From an uncultured Alphaproteobacteria bacterium (GTDB lineage: Bacteria > Pseudomonadota > Alphaproteobacteria > Sphingomonadales > Sphingomonadaceae): a stretch of DNA of 64,000 nucleotides. This document shows positions 46,311-56,400 of this stretch, in pieces. The number at the start of each line of letters is the position of its first letter. Positions within the stretch are counted from its first letter, which is position 1. The stretch spans positions 446,777-510,776 of the forward strand of contig CAWHNF010000002.1 of assembly GCA_963830685.1 (NCBI GenBank), written 5' to 3'. A model generated the notes under the pieces. That model made no database searches and was not told the DNA's origin. It saw only the letters and a list, made by a program, of their open reading frames with translations. The translations under genes and the position numbers were made by a program.

Positions 46311-47348
<1,038 letters not shown>

Positions 47349-47416
47349 TTAAGGCTTCACATTGCGTCTGCTGCCACTTATCAGGCGCTTGAACCAAAGG
47401 CTTCAGGGATCTTTTC

Positions 47417-47734
47417 ATGACAAAAATCACGGTTATTTCACGCGACGGCGAAGGCCGCGAAGTCGAAGCGGAAGCAGGCCTTTCGCTGATGGAAGTGATC
47501 CGCGACAACGGTTTTGACGAATTGCTCGCTCTGTGCGGCGGCTGCTGCTCATGCGCGACCTGCCATGTGCATATCGACCCGGCCTTTGCCGACCGCTTGC
47601 CAAAAATGGGCGAGGACGAAAACGACTTGCTGGACAGCACCGACCACCGAAACGAAACCTCGCGCCTGTCGTGCCAGATTCCGGTTAGTGACGCACTCGA
47701 CGGCCTGATCGTGACCATCGCACCCGAAGATTGA
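47417..47734 (+). CDS. 2Fe-2S ferredoxin (adrenodoxin type)
   Basis: [16 protein letters not shown]. Confidence 0.95.
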
Positions 47735-48532
47735 TTATCCGCGCATAGCCTTTTCAAACAACTCTTCGAGCACTGGGTAGCCGTGGCCATCCGGGATACA
47801 CAGCCAGTTGCCGTCTTCGCGTTTATCAACGTAAGTCAGCACCGTTGAAACCGGATGCTCGGCTGCATGCGCTGCGGCTGCGTCAAAGCTGCCGAACATC
47901 GCCAGCCGCTCCAGATTGCGGCGCGTGGGGAATATAATCTTGATTTTACCCTCGTCGGCACACGCCAATGTCTCGGCGGCAGTTGCCCAAAACAGCGCAC
48001 GATTTTCGGTATGGTCAACGGTCGCCAACGGCGCCGTATTTCCCGCATCGACCAGATAGAAGCGCGTGTCAAAAACGCGGCTTGCGCCTTCAAATGCTGG
48101 CGGTCGCCAACGCGACCAAGGTACGAGCTGATCGAAATCGGGGACCCAATTGTGGCGGTTGCAGATGGCTTGCAGGCTCTCGCCGTCATGCAATGCAGCC
48201 CGCGCGTCGTCGCAATCAGCCGGGTCGGAAACGCCGGTCAACCCAAGCGCCAGCCCTGCTTCCTCAATCGTCTCGCGGATCGCCGCCAGCCGCGCCGCCG
48301 CTTCATCAAGTGGTAAAGGCCCGCCGAGCATCTCGGCATAGTCGAAATCGGCCGGATCAACCTTCCCGCCCGGAAAAACCGCTGCCCCGCCCGCAAACGC
48401 CATCGCCTTGATCCGCTCGACCATCAGCAGCAGCGGCGCACCCCCATCGGGATTTTCGCGAAATATCACCATCGTGGCGGCGGGGGTGGCGACGGGTTGG
48501 GGAGAGGTTTCTGAAGGCATACGTCCTAACAA
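47735..48532 (-). CDS. NUDIX hydrolase (NUDT19-like)
   Basis: VFPGGKVD, AIRETIEEAG, FDTRFY, IFPTRRNL. Confidence 0.9.
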   Translation of the reverse strand: MLGRMPSETSPQPVATPAATMVIFRENPDGGAPLLLMVERIKAMAFAGGAAVFPGGKVDPADFDYAEMLGGPLPLDEAAARLAAIRETIEEAGLALGLTGVSDPADCDDARAALHDGESLQAICNRHNWVPDFDQLVPWSRWRPPAFEGASRVFDTRFYLVDAGNTAPLATVDHTENRALFWATAAETLACADEGKIKIIFPTRRNLERLAMFGSFDAAAAHAAEHPVSTVLTYVDKREDGNWLCIPDGHGYPVLEELFEKAMRG

Positions 48533-48549
48533 GCATGATTAGGCGCAGC

Positions 48550-49389
48550 TTAGAAGCGGAAACTTAATCCAGCGGTTAAACTTGTTGCCTCGGGTCCGGC
48601 AAAACCCAAAGTCCGGTTGGCGTTCAGGTTGAGCCGCCATTTTTCAGCAATCGCAAACGACGCCGATGCCCCGACTTCGGCCCATTCATCGCTTTGCCCC
48701 GGTACGTTGCGTGCGGCAACGATGCGGCTGATGGTGTCACCAGCGGTGCCCGAGCGCGACGCGCTGCTATTCGAGGTGGCGACAAACGCGGAGTTAATGC
48801 CGATGCTGTGGTCACCAAAAAGCTTTTGCAACGACGCGCCAATCGAACCCGTTACGCCATCTTCCTGTGATTTCACGGTCCGCACATCGCCACCCGGAAG
48901 GATGACCGCACGGGCGATATCGACCTTGTCATAATCGACTGCCGCGTAAGGGGAGAGGATAATGCTTTCCGACACCGCCGCTTCATATGTGACAGCCCCG
49001 CCAATCGCAAAACTGCCGCCGTCGCTGTTGATCGTCACCCGGCCGCCTGGCAAAGTTTCCGGGTCGAACCGGCGCTGTCCAGCGGAGACATATCCATCAA
49101 GGCTGACTTCGCCAAAACTGCGACCTGCCGAAATGGTAACCGCCTCGCTATCGACTGGTACTGCGTTGAGAAGTCCTTGCGTGACCCCGCCGCGCACCAT
49201 CGACGCGCCGATTTCCACATATCCCTGCTCGAAATCGCGAGCGAGCGCGATGCTCGCAAATTGCGGATCCTCGTCGCCCGAATAAAGCGTGGCTCCGCCG
49301 CTGATGCCCAGCCGCCAGCCGTCCTCCGCATATGCGCTTGCTGGTGCCATAATCGCTGCCGATGCCAGCATGACTGTCAAAATCTTCAT
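48550..49389 (-). CDS. Outer-membrane beta-barrel protein (autotransporter-barrel-like)
   Basis: Signal peptide, alternating amphipathic strands, terminal LSFRF. Confidence 0.8.
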   Translation of the reverse strand: MKILTVMLASAAIMAPASAYAEDGWRLGISGGATLYSGDEDPQFASIALARDFEQGYVEIGASMVRGGVTQGLLNAVPVDSEAVTISAGRSFGEVSLDGYVSAGQRRFDPETLPGGRVTINSDGGSFAIGGAVTYEAAVSESIILSPYAAVDYDKVDIARAVILPGGDVRTVKSQEDGVTGSIGASLQKLFGDHSIGINSAFVATSNSSASRSGTAGDTISRIVAARNVPGQSDEWAEVGASASFAIAEKWRLNLNANRTLGFAGPEATSLTAGLSFRF

Positions 49390-49434
49390 GAATTGCCTCC
49401 TGTTTCATCCGCCTTTCGGGCCGGATAGAGGCTC

Positions 49435-49460
49435 AACGGACAAGTCCGCAAAATCCTTCG
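49435..49460 (-). promoter_or_regulatory. ECF sigma promoter for the beta-barrel gene
   Basis: Minus strand cGAAGG-attttgcggacttgtc(16)-CGTT. Confidence 0.7.
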
Positions 49461-49470
49461 GAAATTTTTT

Positions 49471-49496
49471 CGAAGGGTTTTTGCGCTACGTGCGTA
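49471..49496 (+). promoter_or_regulatory. ECF sigma promoter (autoregulatory)
   Basis: cGAAGG-gtttttgcgctacgtg(16)-CGTA. Confidence 0.7.
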
Positions 49497-49529
49497 TTGC
49501 TATTGAACTGCAGTTTGGTGGGTGCGTTT

Positions 49530-50108
49530 ATGATGCAGCAGGCGGTCAAACAGGCCGAACAGAATGACGACGAATTGGTTGCGCGCATCGCGGCGCGCGA
49601 TCATGCCGCGATGCGTTTGGTGGCCGACCGTCATGCCCAGCTGGTTTGGCGGGTTGCTTACCGGATGCTGGGTGAAGCAACCGAAGCGGAGGACGTGTCG
49701 CAGGAATCGCTGCTAAAGCTCTGGAATCACGCCGACCGTTGGCAACCCGGCGGTGCTGGAATCGCGCCGTGGCTTAAGAAAGTCACGGTCAACCAGTGTC
49801 TGGACCGGTTACGCCGGAAACGCTTTGCCAGTGATGAGGATGTGCCCGAGCGCGAAGACGAAGCCCCGTTAGCCGACCGCCAGATCGAGGCGGTCGAAAC
49901 CGGACAAGCGGTGAAGGATTGCATCGAGGCGCTCCCCGACCGGCAGCGCGCGGCAGTCATTCTGACCTATTATGAAGAGCAGCCCAACCAAGGCGCTGCG
50001 GAAAGTTTGGAAATGCAATTGAAGGCCTTTGAATCTTTGCTGTTCCGTGCGCGCGCATCCTTGAAAGGCTGCGTTGAGCGCAAGGGCGTGGTCGGAAGGG
50101 CCGGATAA
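49530..50108 (+). CDS. ECF RNA polymerase sigma factor
   Basis: AYRMLG...AEDVSQE..LKLW, WL..V..N.C.D..RR, LPDRQR.AV.L.Y.E. Confidence 0.95.
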   Translation: MMQQAVKQAEQNDDELVARIAARDHAAMRLVADRHAQLVWRVAYRMLGEATEAEDVSQESLLKLWNHADRWQPGGAGIAPWLKKVTVNQCLDRLRRKRFASDEDVPEREDEAPLADRQIEAVETGQAVKDCIEALPDRQRAAVILTYYEEQPNQGAAESLEMQLKAFESLLFRARASLKGCVERKGVVGRAG

Positions 50109-50992
50109 TGGCAGAGCCTGCATTTTCTCCAGAAATCGAAAAGGCGCTCGATGCCTATGCGGTGCCACCCATGCCGAAAGGATTTTCGGAACGGCTGATG
50201 GCGCGCATTGCCAGCGGTGATACCGGCTTGGCCGATACCGCCGCCCATTTGCCGCTGCCCCGCGCGCGTAAATCCAGCCCGTGGCGGCGGACGAGCCGCA
50301 TCGTGGGTTCAGTCGCAATCTTCACGCTCGCCACCGCCACGGCGGCGGCGGCGGGTTTCTTCGGCGATCCGGTCTATGTACCCGGGGTAAGCGAGGCTTT
50401 GGTCGAGGCAAAAATCGTCGAGGCACCCAAGTCCGTTGCCCAACCGAAGATGCGCATGGTCGCAGAAGCCAAGCCAATTGAATCCACAACGGTCCAACCA
50501 CCTGCAACCGGCAGCGCCGCCATCGTCAACCGAGTGGTAGACCTGCGCAACGACCCCGAATTTGCCAAACTGACTCCGCGCCAGCGCCTAGCCGTCACCG
50601 GCAAGGAAGTCAGGCAGATGGTCCGCTCGGGCGAAGTGACGCGTCAGGATGTGCGCACCGCCGTTCGTCAGCTCGCTCAAGACGCCGACCCCGCGACCAA
50701 GGAAGCATGGCGCAAGGCCGCGATCGAACGTCGCGAGAAGCGACTGGAACGGCGCGATCGGATCGGCGCGATTGCGGAACCGCAAAGCGTGACCGAGCCG
50801 CAGGTGAGCACCAGCGAACACGCAATCGCGACCACCGATGCGCCGCCAACGGCCGAAGCCACGAAACTAACGCCCGAAACGGCAGAAGCCATTCGTGAGA
50901 ATATTCGCAATGCGACCCCCGAACAGCGCGCGGCCCTGCGCAACGCCTTGCGCGAACGTCGGCAACTGCGTCAGCAGCGGCGGACTCAGTAG
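50108..50992 (+). CDS. Putative membrane-anchored anti-sigma factor with helical Arg-rich periplasmic domain
   Basis: Coupled to the sigma gene; N-terminal LDAY.VP..P.GF..R.MA; one TM; helical C-terminus. Confidence 0.75.
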   Translation: MAEPAFSPEIEKALDAYAVPPMPKGFSERLMARIASGDTGLADTAAHLPLPRARKSSPWRRTSRIVGSVAIFTLATATAAAAGFFGDPVYVPGVSEALVEAKIVEAPKSVAQPKMRMVAEAKPIESTTVQPPATGSAAIVNRVVDLRNDPEFAKLTPRQRLAVTGKEVRQMVRSGEVTRQDVRTAVRQLAQDADPATKEAWRKAAIERREKRLERRDRIGAIAEPQSVTEPQVSTSEHAIATTDAPPTAEATKLTPETAEAIRENIRNATPEQRAALRNALRERRQLRQQRRTQ

Positions 50993-51006
50993 AAGCAAAA
51001 AATAAT

Positions 51007-51032
51007 CGAAGGGTTTCGCTTCGCCATTCGTT
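51007..51032 (+). promoter_or_regulatory. ECF sigma promoter for the secreted beta-repeat protein
   Basis: cGAAGG-gtttcgcttcgccatt(16)-CGTT. Confidence 0.7.
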
Positions 51033-51077
51033 TGATTTTCAGGAGCGGGGAAATTCTCCCTCCCCAAAATCAGGAGA

Positions 51078-51614
51078 ATGGACGTGAAATATCTTATCAC
51101 TTTACCACTGGCAGCGCTGGCACTGGTTACCTCAGCTAACGCCCAGACCACCAAGACCACAACCATTGAGAATCCAAAAGGTACAGCCACAAGAACGGCC
51201 ACCCGCGACCAGGGCAATCTGACCGTCGACGCCACCGCAACGCGCGCCAGCGACGGTGCCACCGCAACCCGCACGCGGGAACGCACAAAAACCGAAGACG
51301 GTGTCAGCGGCAGCGGTTCGCAAACTGGTTTCAACGGCAAGACGCGCTCGTATGAATATGACCGCACCCGCACCGACGATGGTTGGACCACCACCGGCAG
51401 CGCCACCGACAAGCAAGGCCGCGCCTACGAATATGACGCTTATGGCCGCAAAACCGAAGCCGGCCGCGAGAATAGCCGCACGGTAACGCGTGACGGTGCG
51501 CAAGTTTACAACCGCACCGGCAGCGTCAACAGGGTCGATGGCCAAATCCAGCGTAACGTCAACACAACACGCGACCCCAGCTTCAAACCGCGCAAGGCTG
51601 CGCGCCGCCGCTGA
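51078..51614 (+). CDS. Secreted Thr/Arg/Gly-rich beta-hairpin repeat protein
   Basis: Signal peptide; successive alternating-residue strands separated by DG/NG/KG/QG turns; basic tail. Confidence 0.8.
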   Translation: MDVKYLITLPLAALALVTSANAQTTKTTTIENPKGTATRTATRDQGNLTVDATATRASDGATATRTRERTKTEDGVSGSGSQTGFNGKTRSYEYDRTRTDDGWTTTGSATDKQGRAYEYDAYGRKTEAGRENSRTVTRDGAQVYNRTGSVNRVDGQIQRNVNTTRDPSFKPRKAARRR

Positions 51615-51815
51615 ACCGACTTGCTGCGCGCCATCCCGCACTCACGGCGCGCAGCAACACCCCAGCCCGCCGCGTGTCACAATGCGCCGGGCATCCTATG
51701 GGGAGCGGCGGCATGGGCCTCCAATTCGCCGTTCCCCGCCCTTTCATGTAAAGTCTGATGCGCTCGTATTGCGCGCAGCAAGATAACGTGGCAGCTTCAT
51801 GGACCGGAGGCATAT

Positions 51816-52421
51816 ATGGGCATTGTCGAAATATTGGGTTTGGCTGGCAGCCTGAGCCTGCTTTCAGGCTGGCGCTTTTATCTGACGATATTTGCTACTG
51901 GCGTTGCGATGCACTTCAATATTGTGCCACTTCCTGAAAACCTCCAGATGCTCGATGTACTGGCTAACCCTTGGGTATTGGGTCTTAGCGCGCTTGGCGC
52001 AGTCGCCGAATTTTTCGCTGACAAGATTGCTTGGCTCGATTCAATCTGGGATGGTCTCCACACCCTGATCCGCCCAGTCGGCGGCGCGTTGCTTGCGCTG
52101 GCGGTTGTCGATAGTTCCGACCCCACTTGGCAGGTCATCGCCTTCCTGCTCGGCGGCGGCGCAGCGCTTGCCAGCCATGCGACGAAGTCCACGGCGCGCG
52201 CGGCGGTCAATACCAGTCCCGAACCGTTCAGCAACGTGGTGGTCTCGACCGTCGAGGATGTCGCAACCGGAGGCTTGCTTGTGCTCGCCTTTGCCAACCC
52301 CGTCGCGGCGTTGGTTATTGCGGTGAGCCTGCTGGCGCTGGCGATATGGGGGCTGTGGGCGGGCTACCGGGCATTCCGGCGGGTGTTTCCAAAGCCTGTT
52401 GCGGATAAGTTTGAGAATTAG
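51816..52421 (+). CDS. DUF4126 membrane protein
   Basis: SGWRFYL, EFFADKI.WLDS.WD..HT.IRP, NTSPEPFSN..S..ED. Confidence 0.92.
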   Translation: MGIVEILGLAGSLSLLSGWRFYLTIFATGVAMHFNIVPLPENLQMLDVLANPWVLGLSALGAVAEFFADKIAWLDSIWDGLHTLIRPVGGALLALAVVDSSDPTWQVIAFLLGGGAALASHATKSTARAAVNTSPEPFSNVVVSTVEDVATGGLLVLAFANPVAALVIAVSLLALAIWGLWAGYRAFRRVFPKPVADKFEN

Positions 52422-53265
52422 TGCCTGTCCCACGTGCGAAGGTCACATTCGCATTCGGCACCGGGATAATCGGCTTGGCCAATTCACCGCTATATCCCGA
52501 ATAAATAAACCCGCCATTTTCCAACGTGTCCAAGATCCATTCGCGCTTGTCGGGCTCGACCACAAAACAGCCTTCGCTCGAACCCGGACGTCCCTTGTTC
52601 GAAATAAATTCCGCATTGAAATAGCGCCGCCGTTCGGGCTGATAGCTATGAACGACAATATCGCGATACCGCATCTGGTTGTTCGATGGCTCTAGCCCGT
52701 CAAGCCGCAGCGATAACCCGTTGATACCAACATAGCGCTCCGCCCCGATTGCGGCGCCGAGCGACGACGACAGGCTGTTGTAGACATTGCTGAACACCGT
52801 CGCATAGCCGTCGTCATCGGGGTCAGAGCCAATGCCATGCGCGACGCGGATGGGGCTGTCGAGGCCATCGCCGGTCCTCAGATCCACGCGGTATAAACGC
52901 GGCTCGCTGCTGTGTTTGGCAAAATCGACGACGACGATAACCGCTGGGCCAACGCTGCGACCGAATGCGCAATAATAGCCGCGATATTTTTCCATCGCGG
53001 TCGCGAATAGTTTCCCGTCTAGCCGCTGTTTCGGGGTCAGCAGCGCATCATAAAAGCCATAGCTGATGGCCCTGCTCGACAAAGCCAGCGCGTCGCAGCC
53101 GATCTCGGGCCGCGGGGGTTTGATGTACACGGGCTGCGCGCTTGCGGCATCGCCAGTGCCCGATTGGAATACAACTGGCGTCGGCGCATCTTGCGCAACC
53201 ACGGGCGCATACAACAGGGCCAGCGGCGCGATTAAGGCGAAATTTGCTTTCAAAATATATCTCAT
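52315..53265 (-). CDS. Murein L,D-transpeptidase catalytic-domain (YkuD_2) protein
   Basis: VDFAKHSSEPRL, VAHG.GSD, FSN..S..SSLG, LRLDGLE..N, IVVH, GSSEGC; 3' end overlaps the DUF4126 gene. Confidence 0.85.
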   Translation of the reverse strand: MRYILKANFALIAPLALLYAPVVAQDAPTPVVFQSGTGDAASAQPVYIKPPRPEIGCDALALSSRAISYGFYDALLTPKQRLDGKLFATAMEKYRGYYCAFGRSVGPAVIVVVDFAKHSSEPRLYRVDLRTGDGLDSPIRVAHGIGSDPDDDGYATVFSNVYNSLSSSLGAAIGAERYVGINGLSLRLDGLEPSNNQMRYRDIVVHSYQPERRRYFNAEFISNKGRPGSSEGCFVVEPDKREWILDTLENGGFIYSGYSGELAKPIIPVPNANVTFARGTGTNSQTYPQQALETPAGMPGSPPTAPISPAPAGSPQ

Positions 53266-53428
53266 CTGTTGTTCAAACGTGCCGAAGCTATCAGTTCAAC
53301 GATGCGACCCTTGTTATCGTTCCATTATGCTGCATATGCGAGATAAGGCAAGTGCGGGAAAAAACCTGCCTTGAAATTCGGCCCAAAGCGAGCCACTTTC
53401 ATCCCGAACGCGACCTCTTGCGCTTTTA

Positions 53429-53443
53429 GAACAAATCTGGAAC
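53429..53443 (+). promoter_or_regulatory. Alphaproteobacterial LexA (SOS) box
   Basis: GAAC-aaatctg-GAAC (GAAC-N7-GAAC), 11 bp upstream of the uvrA ATG. Confidence 0.85.
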
Positions 53444-53454
53444 AAGCCGAATCT

Positions 53455-56400
53455 ATGTCACTCACCCACATAAAGGTGCGCGGTGCGCGCGAGCATAATC
53501 TCAAGGGCGTCGATATCGACCTGCCGCGCGACAAATTGATCGTGATTACCGGGCTGTCGGGGTCGGGAAAATCGAGTCTCGCGTTCGATACCATCTACGC
53601 AGAAGGCCAGCGGCGATATGTCGAGTCGCTGTCGGCCTATGCGCGGCAGTTCCTTGAGATGATGCAGAAGCCCGATGTCGAGCATATCGAGGGGCTCAGC
53701 CCTGCAATCTCCATCGAGCAGAAGACCACGTCTCGCAACCCGCGCTCGACCGTGGCGACCGTTACCGAGATTTACGACTATATGCGCCTGCTCTGGGCGC
53801 GCGTTGGCATCCCGTATTCGCCCGCGACCGGCCTGCCGATCACCGCGCAGACTGTCAGCCAGATGGTCGACCGCGTCATGGCGTTGCCCGAAGGCACCCG
53901 CGCCTTCCTGCTTGCACCGGTGGTGCAGGGCCGCAAGGGCGAATATCGCAAGGAACTCGCCGAATGGCAGCGCTCGGGCTACACCCGCGTGCGCATCGAC
54001 GGCGAATTCTACCCCATCGAAGAAGCGCCTGCGCTCGACAAGAAATATAAGCATGACATCGAGGTTGTGGTCGATCGAATCGTCGTGAAGGACGGCATCC
54101 AGCAGCGACTGGCCGAAAGTTTCGAGGCGGCGTTGAAGCTGGCCGATGGCCTGGCCTTCGTCGACCTCGCCGACACCACTGTGGCCGAACTGGTGCCCAG
54201 TGCATTTGGCGAGGCCCGCGCGGCGTTTGTTGCACAAAACACCGTTCGTCCTGAGCCTGTCGAAGGACAGGAGGCGCAGCGCGACGGTGCTTCGACAAGC
54301 TCAGCACGAACGGGAGGTATGAAGAAGACGGGGCCTACCGGCTAACCGCATCGTCTTCTCCGAAAAATTCGCCTGCCCGGTCAGCGGCTTCACCATCGCC
54401 GAAATCGCGCCGCGTCTGTTCTCGTTCAACGCCCCGCAAGGCGCGTGCCCCGATTGCGACGGACTTGGCGAGCGGCAGGAGTTCGACCCGCAGCTTGTCG
54501 TCCCCAACGAACATCTGTCCCTCAAAAAAGGCGCGGTCGTGCCGTGGGCGAAATCGAACCCGCCCAGCCCATATTATATGCAAGTGCTGTCCAGCCTCGC
54601 CAAGGCATACGACTTCAACCTCGACACCCCGTGGGAGGACCTGCTCCCCGACCAGAAGCTCATCATCCTCCACGGCACCGGCGGGCTTCCGGTCGAGCTG
54701 ACCTTCAAGGACGGGCGCAAGGAATATACGGTGCGCAAGGCGTTCGAGGGCGTCATCGGCAACCTCAACCGCCGCCTGCTGCAAACCGACAGCGCGTGGA
54801 TGCGCGAGGAGCTGTCGAAATACCAGACCTCGCAACCGTGCGAAACCTGCCACGGCGCGCGCCTCAAACCCGAAGCGCTTAGCGTCAAGATCGCTGGCGT
54901 CGACATCGCCACCCCCACCAAAATGAGCGTCGGCGATGCGCTTGTCTGGTTCGGCAATGTCGACCAGACACTGACCAACCAGCAACAGCAGATTGCCAAG
55001 GCCATCCTCAAGGAAATCAACGAACGGCTTGGGCTTCCTCAACAATGTCGGGCTCGATTATCTCAACCTTGACCGGACGTCAGGGACATTGTCCGGCGGC
55101 GAAAGCCAGCGGATCCGCCTCGCCAGCCAAATCGGCTCCGGCCTGTCGGGCGTGCTGTATGTCCTCGACGAACCCAGCATCGGCTTGCACCAGAAGGACA
55201 ATGACCGCCTGCTCGCGACGCTGCGCCGCCTGCGCGACCTCGGCAACACCGTCATCGTCGTCGAGCATGACGAGGACGCGATCCGCACCGCCGACTGGGT
55301 GGTCGACCTCGGCCCCGGCGCGGGCGTCCACGGCGGTACCGTCATGGCCGAAGGCACGCTCAAGCAGATCCTGAAAGCCAAGGGCAGCCTGACCGCCGAT
55401 TATCTCGAACGGCACCCGCGAAATCGCGGTCCCCAAGACTCGGCGCAAGGGCAACAAGAAGAAGCTCACCGTCCACAACGCGCGCGCCAACAACCTGAAA
55501 AACGTCACCGCGAGCATCCCGCTCGGCACCTTCTGCTGCATCACCGGCGTGTCGGGTTCGGGCAAGTCGAGCTTCACCATCGACACGCTCTACGCCTCGG
55601 CGGCGCGGCAACTGAACGGCGCGCGAGTCATCGCGGGCGCGCATGACAAGATCACCGGCCTCGAACATTGCGACAAGGTGATCGACATCGACCAGTCGCC
55701 CATCGGCCGCACGCCGCGGTCGAACCCGGCGACCTATACCGGCGCGTTCACCAACATCCGCGACTGGTTCGCGCAGCTACCCGAAAGCGCGGCGCGCGGG
55801 TACAAGCCGGGGCGTTTCTCGTTCAACGTCAAGGGCGGCCGGTGCGAAACATGCAGCGGCGACGGCCTGATCAAGATCGAAATGCACTTCCTGCCCGACG
55901 TCTATGTGACGTGCGAGGAATGCAACGGCAAACGCTACAACCGCGAAACTTTGGAGGTCAAATGGAAGGGCCTCTCAATCGCCGACGTGCTCGACATGAC
56001 GGTCGAGGACGCGGTCGAGGTGTTCAAGGCCGTCCCCCCGATCCGCGACAAGATGGCGATGCTGGCCGAGGTCGGGCTTGGCTATGTCAAGGTCGGGCAG
56101 CAGGCAACGACATTGTCAGGCGGCGAAGCGCAACGAGTCAAACTCGCCAAGGAACTCAGCCGCCGCAGCACCGGCCAGACGCTCTACATATTGGACGAGC
56201 CCACCACCGGGCTGCATTTCGAGGATGTCCGCAAACTCCTCGAAGTCCTCCACCGCCTGGTCGAACAGGGCAACAGCGTGGTGGTGATCGAGCATAATCT
56301 CGACGTCATCAAGACCGCGGACTGGGTGATCGACCTCGGGCCGGAAGGCGGCGTGAAGGGCGGGGAGATTGTCGCGGAGGGGACTCCGGAGCAGGTGGCG

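Follow-up and report, generated by a model that had tools for sequence, protein, structure and literature searches.

Does an element repeated three times around a sigma factor gene mark the promoters of one small regulon, and how far does such a regulon extend? This question is raised by a locus in the 3.04-Mb genome of a Sphingorhabdus-like bacterium. The locus lies in a stretch of 64,000 nucleotides (C2:446777-510776), called the window here, and contains genes for an extracytoplasmic function (ECF) sigma factor, a membrane protein next to it, an outer-membrane beta-barrel and an exported repeat protein. ECF sigma factors autoregulate through bipartite motifs and are restrained by a co-encoded anti-sigma factor. 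A preliminary description of the locus had proposed that the four genes form a self-contained envelope module of this kind, and that the barrel could export or anchor the repeat protein. Our sequence analysis points, with a probability of roughly 85%, to an autoregulated ECF sigma/anti-sigma switch with a very small and mostly local regulon. The regulatory mechanism is an ordinary and well-known kind of switch, and the interest of the system lies in its unusual, swappable cargo.

The repeated element and the sigma factor

Three copies of CGAAGG-N16-CGT(T/A) with a T-run, on which the proposal was founded, are indeed present, and the spacer is 16 nucleotides long in each of them. P_barrel (49435-49460, minus strand) has its -35 element cGAAGG at 49460-49455 and its -10 element CGTT at 49438-49435, and lies 46 nucleotides 5' of the barrel ATG. 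P_sigma (49471-49496, plus strand; cGAAGG at 49471-49476, CGTA at 49493-49496) lies 34 nucleotides 5' of the ATG at 49530, while P_rep (51007-51032, plus strand; cGAAGG at 51007-51012, CGTT at 51029-51032) begins 14 nucleotides past the stop codon of the putative anti-sigma gene. All three sites are intergenic, are directed at the downstream gene and stand 34-52 nucleotides from its start codon, with a T-rich stretch on the 3' side of each -35 element (ATTTT, GTTTTT and GTTTC). No sigma70-like promoter was predicted in these intergenic regions. The -35 elements of P_barrel and P_sigma stand back to back, separated by a 10-bp A/T tract, GAAATTTTTT (49461-49470), and CCTTCG-GAAATTTTTT-CGAAGG makes a perfect inverted repeat (CCTTCG-N10-CGAAGG) between the divergent barrel and sigma genes. 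The same back-to-back arrangement was also observed at loci L020, L027, L098 and L102, and the consensus of the A/T tract is aaattttt.

The bare pattern GAAGG-N16-CGT was found six times in the window against 2.1 expected, and CGAAGG-N16-CGT has 46 occurrences in the genome. The strict form CGAAGGNTTT-N12-CGT occurs four times genome-wide, and three of these occurrences fall within this 1.6-kb stretch. The Poisson estimate for three sites within 1.6 kb, taken genome-wide, is about 7e-3 if the loose pattern is used and about 1e-7 if the strict one is. A genome scan, which had been suggested as a check, was performed with two matrices from which the window sites were left out. With matrix 1, made from orthologous sites of nine same-genus genomes, P_sigma scored 45.8, P_barrel 39.5 and P_rep 31.8 bits, and the next genomic site 21.2 bits. 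Matrix 2, made from 118 distinct sites of 80 other species, gave 44.7, 40.0 and 36.5 bits, respectively; the next sites in the remaining genome reached 23.4 and then 13.9 bits, and the maximum in the reversed genome, which served as the null, was 16.3 bits. The three local sites rank first with both matrices. The observation of the motif is correct and goes far beyond chance.

Several other matches were rejected. The match at C1:126418 lies inside a gene on the opposite strand, the one at C2:344304 is intragenic and has no CGT, and the one at C2:438043, with 13.9 bits, is below the null maximum; all three are taken as chance matches. Sites 38865, 39641 and 55965 of the window have the bare pattern without the T-run, and none of them exceeds 9 bits. 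Motif matches at L107, L108 and L109 in other genomes were intragenic.

The sigma gene (49530-50108, plus strand) codes for a group 4 (ECF) sigma factor of 192 residues. Sigma70_r2 was found at residues 33-98 (Pfam, 1e-17) and Sigma70_r4_2 at residues 126-178 (3.5e-11), which is the two-domain layout of ECF factors (about 170-220 residues, no region 1.1 or 3). TIGR02937, the sigma70-ECF model, matches with 96 bits (cut-off 43). The best NCBIfam model, NF004113 (PRK05602), matches with 196.1 bits, below its cut-off of 208, and the protein stays outside this equivalog. The nearest solved structures are SigE and SigL of Mycobacterium tuberculosis (E 4e-15). The genome has roughly a dozen ECF-type sigma factors, among which this one has no close paralogue. 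Transcription is predicted to start at or after an upstream TTG codon at 49497, which makes the ATG at 49530 the likely start codon. The conserved -35 element, fixed spacer and CGT-type -10 element expected of an autoregulatory ECF promoter are all found in silico.

The putative anti-sigma gene (50108-50992, plus strand; 294 residues) starts within the stop codon of the sigma gene (TAATG), an overlap by which the two genes are translationally coupled. In its product an N-terminal peptide of about 35 residues is conserved; the protein further has an Arg-rich stop-transfer segment, a single transmembrane helix (about residues 64-86) and, on the periplasmic side, a tail rich in Arg and Glu that is poorly conserved, with a predicted isoelectric point (pI) of 10.2 and PEQRA-like motifs. 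The gene stands directly 3' of the sigma gene in nearly all of the 80 loci surveyed below. It is from this position, the topology and the conservation that the anti-sigma role is deduced. One metagenomic gene call of 490 residues (P0165) consists of an anti-sigma homologue and a whole repeat protein with its signal peptide; rather than a true fusion, this is most likely a call that has read through the short promoter region between the two genes.

Conservation of the element and of its cargo

The motif was surveyed at 80 species-level Sphingomonadales loci (sigma identity 52-96%) from Sphingorhabdus, Parasphingorhabdus, Sphingomonas, Chakrabartia, Stakelama and other genera, with a detection threshold of 12 bits. 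It was found 5' of the sigma gene at 70 of the 80 loci, of the barrel gene at 26 of 30 and of the repeat gene at 35 of 45, and the spacer is N16 in 74 of the 80 loci. In about 600 kb of flanks that were scanned, two other matches of at least 12 bits turned up, both at the position of the repeat gene. The consensus across species is aaattttttCGAAGGGTTT-N13-CGT(t/a), also written CGAAGGGTTT-N13-CGT. The -35 and -10 elements carry almost the maximal information content, and the spacer almost none (69, 26 and 33 distinct sites for P_sigma, P_barrel and P_rep, respectively), and the same invariant -35 and -10 elements with an uninformative spacer were observed in a set of 19 sites. Conserved -35 and -10 elements with a free spacer sequence, at a fixed spacing and before the same genes, are the hallmark of a promoter that the adjacent sigma factor recognises. 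The presence of the motif before the sigma gene in 70 of 80 species agrees with the proposal that the sigma factor would autoregulate through it.

Closer relatives give a similar picture. Among 24 genomes of the same genus the sigma gene was present in nine, in the same position between NUDIX and DUF4126 genes, and the motif was found 5' of the sigma gene in 9/9, of the repeat gene in 5/5 and of the barrel gene in 2/2 cases, with spacers that all differ. In a wider set of 41 relatives, the three barrel genes and six repeat genes were all at the sigma locus and none was in a sigma-less genome; these two genes were located only beside this sigma factor. The motif pattern was counted on average about 3.5 times in sigma-bearing genomes versus about 1.3 times in the sigma-less ones of the same genus, mostly a purA element that is discussed below. 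In other genera, homologues of the repeat and barrel genes stand beside the orthologous sigma gene and its partner in unrelated neighbourhoods, and the motif precedes each gene. Examples are Sphingomonas sp. SUN039, a Parasphingorhabdus and a metagenome-assembled genome (MAG) in which the cluster adjoins secE-nusG. The notion that sigma factor, anti-sigma factor, barrel and secreted protein belong to one module is thus borne out, with the motif before the same three genes across genera and the cargo only beside the sigma gene.

The cargo itself is variable. Co-occurrence was counted in the 67 loci with complete flanks: the barrel and repeat genes stand together at 22 of them, the repeat gene is alone at 19 and the barrel gene at 2, and the other 24 carry neither. 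Conservation of the four-gene cluster had also been put forward as a check; the full set of barrel and repeat genes was found in the said 22 of 67 loci, with the motif before the same genes. The complete cluster of four genes is also present in a cultivable species, S. contaminans KCTC 32445 (locus L113). The putative sigma/anti-sigma pair is the core of the predicted module, and the barrel and the repeat protein are swappable accessory cargo. Elsewhere the motif precedes other genes for exported proteins, namely a DUF1800 protein in G006, a protein of 100 residues and pI 11.7 in G007 (L106:2037-2409) and, in a Parerythrobacter MAG, a protein of 149 residues and pI 12.0 with hairpins like those of the repeat protein.

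Small and extremely basic exported proteins of this alternative kind (pI 11.7-12.0) were observed behind the same promoter in species that have no repeat gene, at L142:3445-3985 and L102:1646-1984 besides the G007 locus, and two of the alternative basic cargo proteins have a common C-terminal tail, AKNAVENGA..VR.KV...KR. In another family of the order (G027), two overlapping face-to-face copies of GAAGG-N16-CGT were seen (L032:3907-3956) at a sigma gene whose product is 36% identical and downstream of which a small anti-sigma-like protein of a different kind and a periplasmic protein resembling Spy/CpxP are encoded. This occurrence indicates that the promoter type reaches beyond the orthologous group.

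By analogy with established ECF systems, the partner membrane protein would hold the sigma factor by the short conserved N-terminus on its cytoplasmic side. The basic periplasmic tail would sense or pass on an envelope signal that frees the sigma factor, probably by regulated proteolysis, and the sigma-RNA polymerase holoenzyme would then fire P_sigma, in a positive feedback, together with P_barrel and P_rep. The predicted output is an acidic, passenger-less, autotransporter-like outer-membrane barrel of 12 strands and a strongly basic, hydrophilic beta-meander protein of 11 strands, which would be exported by the Sec pathway and whose mRNA would have a 5' hairpin of a stabilising type. A secreted alpha/beta-hydrolase encoded 216 kb away could be a further output. 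Because the cargo varies by species (one, both, neither, or other small and very basic exported proteins), the system is read as a remodelling response of the envelope, in the outer membrane or periplasm. Some observations weigh against this view of the locus. P_rep scored below 12 bits in 10 of 45 loci and P_barrel in 4 of 30, and no anti-sigma domain was found in the partner protein by searches of Pfam, NCBIfam and the PDB, made with the single sequence and with a profile.

The exported proteins and the extent of the predicted regulon

The barrel gene (48550-49389, minus strand) codes for an autotransporter-like protein of 279 residues with a signal peptide, a C-terminal Phe and a pI of 4.6. 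It matches the autotransporter beta-domain PF03797 (2e-7; 31.4 bits, cut-off 26), from profile position 60 of 255 onwards with positions 1-59 unmatched, as well as OMP_b-brl (1e-5) and TIGR01414. An AlphaFold2 model with a mean predicted local distance difference test score (pLDDT) of 75 has about 12 strands, the first of which starts at residue 24, right after the signal peptide. The best Foldseek matches of the model are the beta-domains of EstA, EspP, NalP and BrkA (E 1e-10 to 1e-7, template modelling (TM) score about 0.6-0.67), and FapF is also among the structural matches (E 6.5e-6). The Pfam score, the model and these matches agree on a 12-strand PF03797-type barrel, as in type Va autotransporters. 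Two other hallmarks of type Va were looked for and are absent: the polypeptide of 279 residues passes from the signal peptide directly to the first strand and has no passenger domain, and no linker helix lies in the pore of the model, its sole helix (219-227) being in a low-confidence loop.

The repeat gene (51078-51614, plus strand) codes for an exported protein of 178 residues with a signal peptide cleaved after ANA. An alternative GTG start at 51084, as compared to the ATG at 51078, fits the MK... start of the homologues. The mature protein is rich in Thr and Arg, with a pI of 10.3 and a grand average of hydropathy of -1.44, and its AlphaFold2 model (pLDDT 87.6) is a meander of 11 antiparallel strands that carry Thr/Ser/Asp/Glu on one face and Arg/Tyr/Ala on the other. 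It matched no family in Pfam or NCBIfam, and no PDB structure better than E 0.12; the best geometric overlap was with part of a 16-strand porin wall (TM score 0.58). The family is small: a set of 5.8 billion proteins gave 49 clusters, and one of 1.84 billion gave 174 representatives at 50% identity. Its distant relatives are other secreted proteins with TGPxG/RTxDG hairpin repeats, likewise without a Pfam family. In G018 the repeat gene (L021; G018:C91:28985-29567) matches as two fragments that lie in different frames (residues 1-160 and 148-177), a split that may stem from a frameshift or from faulty assembly.

Near the 5' end of the repeat-protein mRNA, the minimum free energy structure has a stem-loop, GGAGCGGGGAAATTCTCCCTCC (51042-51063, plus strand). 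Taken alone, the window leader folds no better than its dinucleotide shuffles (z -0.4). Among 32 distinct orthologous leaders (L110-L188), which vary in sequence, 94% have z < -1 and the mean is -2.0; sigma leaders average 0.0 (Mann-Whitney p 4e-13). The hairpin is probably a 5' stabiliser, or it could have a regulatory role. Just past the stop codon of the repeat gene lies a perfect 12-bp inverted repeat, TTGCTGCGCGCC ... GGCGCGCAGCAA (51621-51657, plus strand), with a 13-nucleotide loop and an RNA fold of -23.8 kcal/mol (z -6.3), after which there is no T-run. It is likely to be the end of the transcript, and may be a terminator without a U-tract or an element resembling repetitive extragenic palindromes.

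Two alternative explanations concern what the element is and how far its reach extends. The perfect palindrome CCTTCG-N10-CGAAGG between the divergent genes could be taken for the operator of a DNA-binding regulator, in which case the repeated element would not be a promoter of the adjacent sigma factor. This we consider highly improbable, as the element is bipartite, its spacer is fixed at 16 nucleotides but free in sequence, its -10 element has the CGT that typifies ECF promoters, and it always faces the downstream gene at promoter distance. P_rep, which stands alone, lacks a palindromic partner, and across the 80 species the element is tied to the presence of the sigma gene while no regulator gene is conserved in the module. 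For the extension of the ECF regulon beyond the locus, the chances are about even. The sigma factor may also drive a secreted alpha/beta-hydrolase by co-opting a look-alike in the divergent promoter/leader of purA, and the regulon would then not be self-contained. The site in question (C2:280175-280200) lies outside the window, 216 kb from the locus, and the hydrolase is an exported esterase of 340 residues (BD-FAE/Abhydrolase_3; C2:280251-281273, also outside the window). With 21.2-23.4 bits it is the best genomic site outside the locus and exceeds the reversed-genome maximum of 16.3; it is intergenic, in the correct orientation and 48 nucleotides before the ATG. The motif is retained before the esterase orthologue in G022, G010, G018, G005 and G017, and in G005 and G017, which have neither barrel nor repeat gene, it is the sole other intergenic match. 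Esterase orthologues of at least 66% identity were found in only seven genomes, all of them sigma-bearing (hypergeometric p 2.5e-4, uncorrected for phylogeny); however, shared ancestry may suffice to explain this restriction. Moreover, the 23 bits of the site are far under the 36-45 bits of the local sites, and the same sequence, spacer included, is conserved in at least nine genomes of the genus from which both the sigma factor and the esterase are missing. In those genomes hisZ and purA flank it, both of them on the other strand, and it is oriented into the 3' end of hisZ. The purA promoter/leader therefore accounts for the conservation of the site. Should the site be a real promoter, the esterase gene came to lie behind a look-alike sequence that was already in place. 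The description of the regulon as self-contained holds to the extent that the genome has no other strong site but this one, and may go slightly too far in view of the ambiguous fourth match itself (23.4 bits).

The barrel and the repeat protein could, furthermore, be a working pair, with the barrel serving as exporter of the repeat protein or as its anchor at the surface, in the manner of an autotransporter with a separate passenger or of a FapF-type channel. The two genes have the same promoter and are predicted to be co-regulated. The repeat gene was found in 22 of 24 barrel loci versus 19 of 43 barrel-less loci (Fisher p 1.7e-4, uncorrected for phylogeny), and one of the two barrel-only loci (L142) has another basic hairpin-repeat protein at the position of the repeat gene. 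In addition, the proteins have opposite charges (pI 4.6 and 10.3), the barrel is free of the pore-filling linker helix of true autotransporters, and FapF is among its fold matches (E 6.5e-6). Against this, 19 of the 67 complete loci have the repeat gene without the barrel, and in G022, G018 and G006, of the same genus, the repeat gene is present with no barrel homologue anywhere in the genome. The modelled folded sheet of 11 strands is too large for such a pore in folded form, and no classical 12-strand autotransporter barrel is known to secrete a separately encoded protein, which counts against an export pair. On balance a working pair appears unlikely. As the repeat gene is common without the barrel, an obligate role of the barrel as exporter or anchor, the link that had been suggested, is not supported, and a facultative role is possible. 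The outer membrane of Sphingomonadales contains glycosphingolipids in place of lipopolysaccharide. It is conceivable, though decidedly doubtful, that barrel and repeat protein are an ECF-switched two-gene export/display pair for a new class of Arg/Thr-rich beta-repeat proteins, and that the Arg-rich tail of the anti-sigma factor senses the cargo-coated anionic glycosphingolipid surface.

The purA upstream region has features of its own. A segment of about 125 nucleotides (C2:280126-280250; loci L086, L067-L084) is conserved genus-wide and resembles a sigma70 promoter (TTTAGG, variable spacer, CATAAT) followed by a structured leader. In the leader, one hairpin (GCGAA-TCCC-TTCGC) is invariant and a second one shows covariation (CGCAGGA/TCCTGCG, CGCAAGA/TCTTGCG, CAGAAA/TTTCTG). 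Read on the opposite strand, this element mimics the ECF motif. No Rfam family matched the element, which could be an undescribed cis-regulatory leader.

Relation to known systems and neighbouring genes

The putative switch can be compared with RpoE-RseA of Escherichia coli and SigW-RsiW of Bacillus subtilis. As in these systems, the sigma factor consists of sigma2 and sigma4 only and is predicted to be co-transcribed with a single-pass membrane partner, and there is an own promoter with a CGT-containing -10 element and a fixed spacer, with envelope proteins as targets. However, the -35 element here is CGAAGG(G)TTT where the (G)GAAC type is usual, no anti-sigma domain can be recognised in the partner, and the regulon is tiny, with three or perhaps four promoters and a cargo that changes between species.

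The closest published promoter that we found is cnrYp, the mapped CnrH promoter of Cupriavidus metallidurans, with a -35 element CCGAGG and a -10 element CCGTATA (PMC13492112), which resemble CGAAGG ... CGTAT / CGTTATA here. Among the ECF Hub consensus sequences tabulated in the same paper, none has a GAAGG -35 element. CnrY, a class II short anti-sigma factor, acts through a short cytoplasmic peptide (PMC6851896), and a similar economy is suggested by the partner protein here, in which only about 35 N-terminal residues are conserved. In contrast, the similarity of the sigma factor to CnrH (ECF20/ECF291) is weak (E 1e-5), lower than to M. tuberculosis SigE and SigL, and the locus has no CnrX-like sensor, no metal-efflux genes and a different gene order from CnrH-CnrY. 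A Spy/CpxP-like periplasmic protein has been reported in the arrangement of the ECF281 and ECF290 groups (PMC7826278); the L032 relative (sigma identity 36%), which has the same motif, likewise has a Spy/CpxP-like protein at +2. The ECF classification paper (Casas-Pastor 2021) mentions no autotransporter or Sphingomonadales context, and a literature search combining ECF, Sphingomonadales and autotransporter returned nothing relevant.

With type Va autotransporters (EstA, EspP, NalP, BrkA, Hbp) the barrel shares the 12 strands, PF03797/TIGR01414 and the C-terminal Phe, but differs from them in having neither passenger nor linker helix. FapF and CsgG channels offer a further comparison, which is an analogy only, as they too are small outer-membrane barrels co-expressed with a secreted, repeat-rich beta protein. 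Unlike them, the present system lacks a plug helix, accessory genes and Q/N repeats of the amyloid type, and its repeat protein is often barrel-less.

The locus could serve as a ready-made, nearly orthogonal ECF switch with a promoter defined by more than 100 natural variants, a predicted regulon of three or four promoters and, in the partner, a conserved predicted sigma-binding region that is unusually short. Such a switch would be of use for ECF classification and for synthetic circuits. Two uncharacterised families, the passenger-less barrel and the basic 11-strand beta-meander protein, would in addition gain a regulatory handle and an expression condition.

No known RNA family of Rfam was detected at window positions 47000-53500. 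Downstream of the module, the DUF4126 gene (51816-52421, plus strand) and a YkuD_2 L,D-transpeptidase gene (52315-53265, minus strand) are convergent, and their 3' ends overlap by 107 nucleotides (52315-52421). This overlap is preserved in relatives, with about 101 nucleotides at L019 and 107 at L104.

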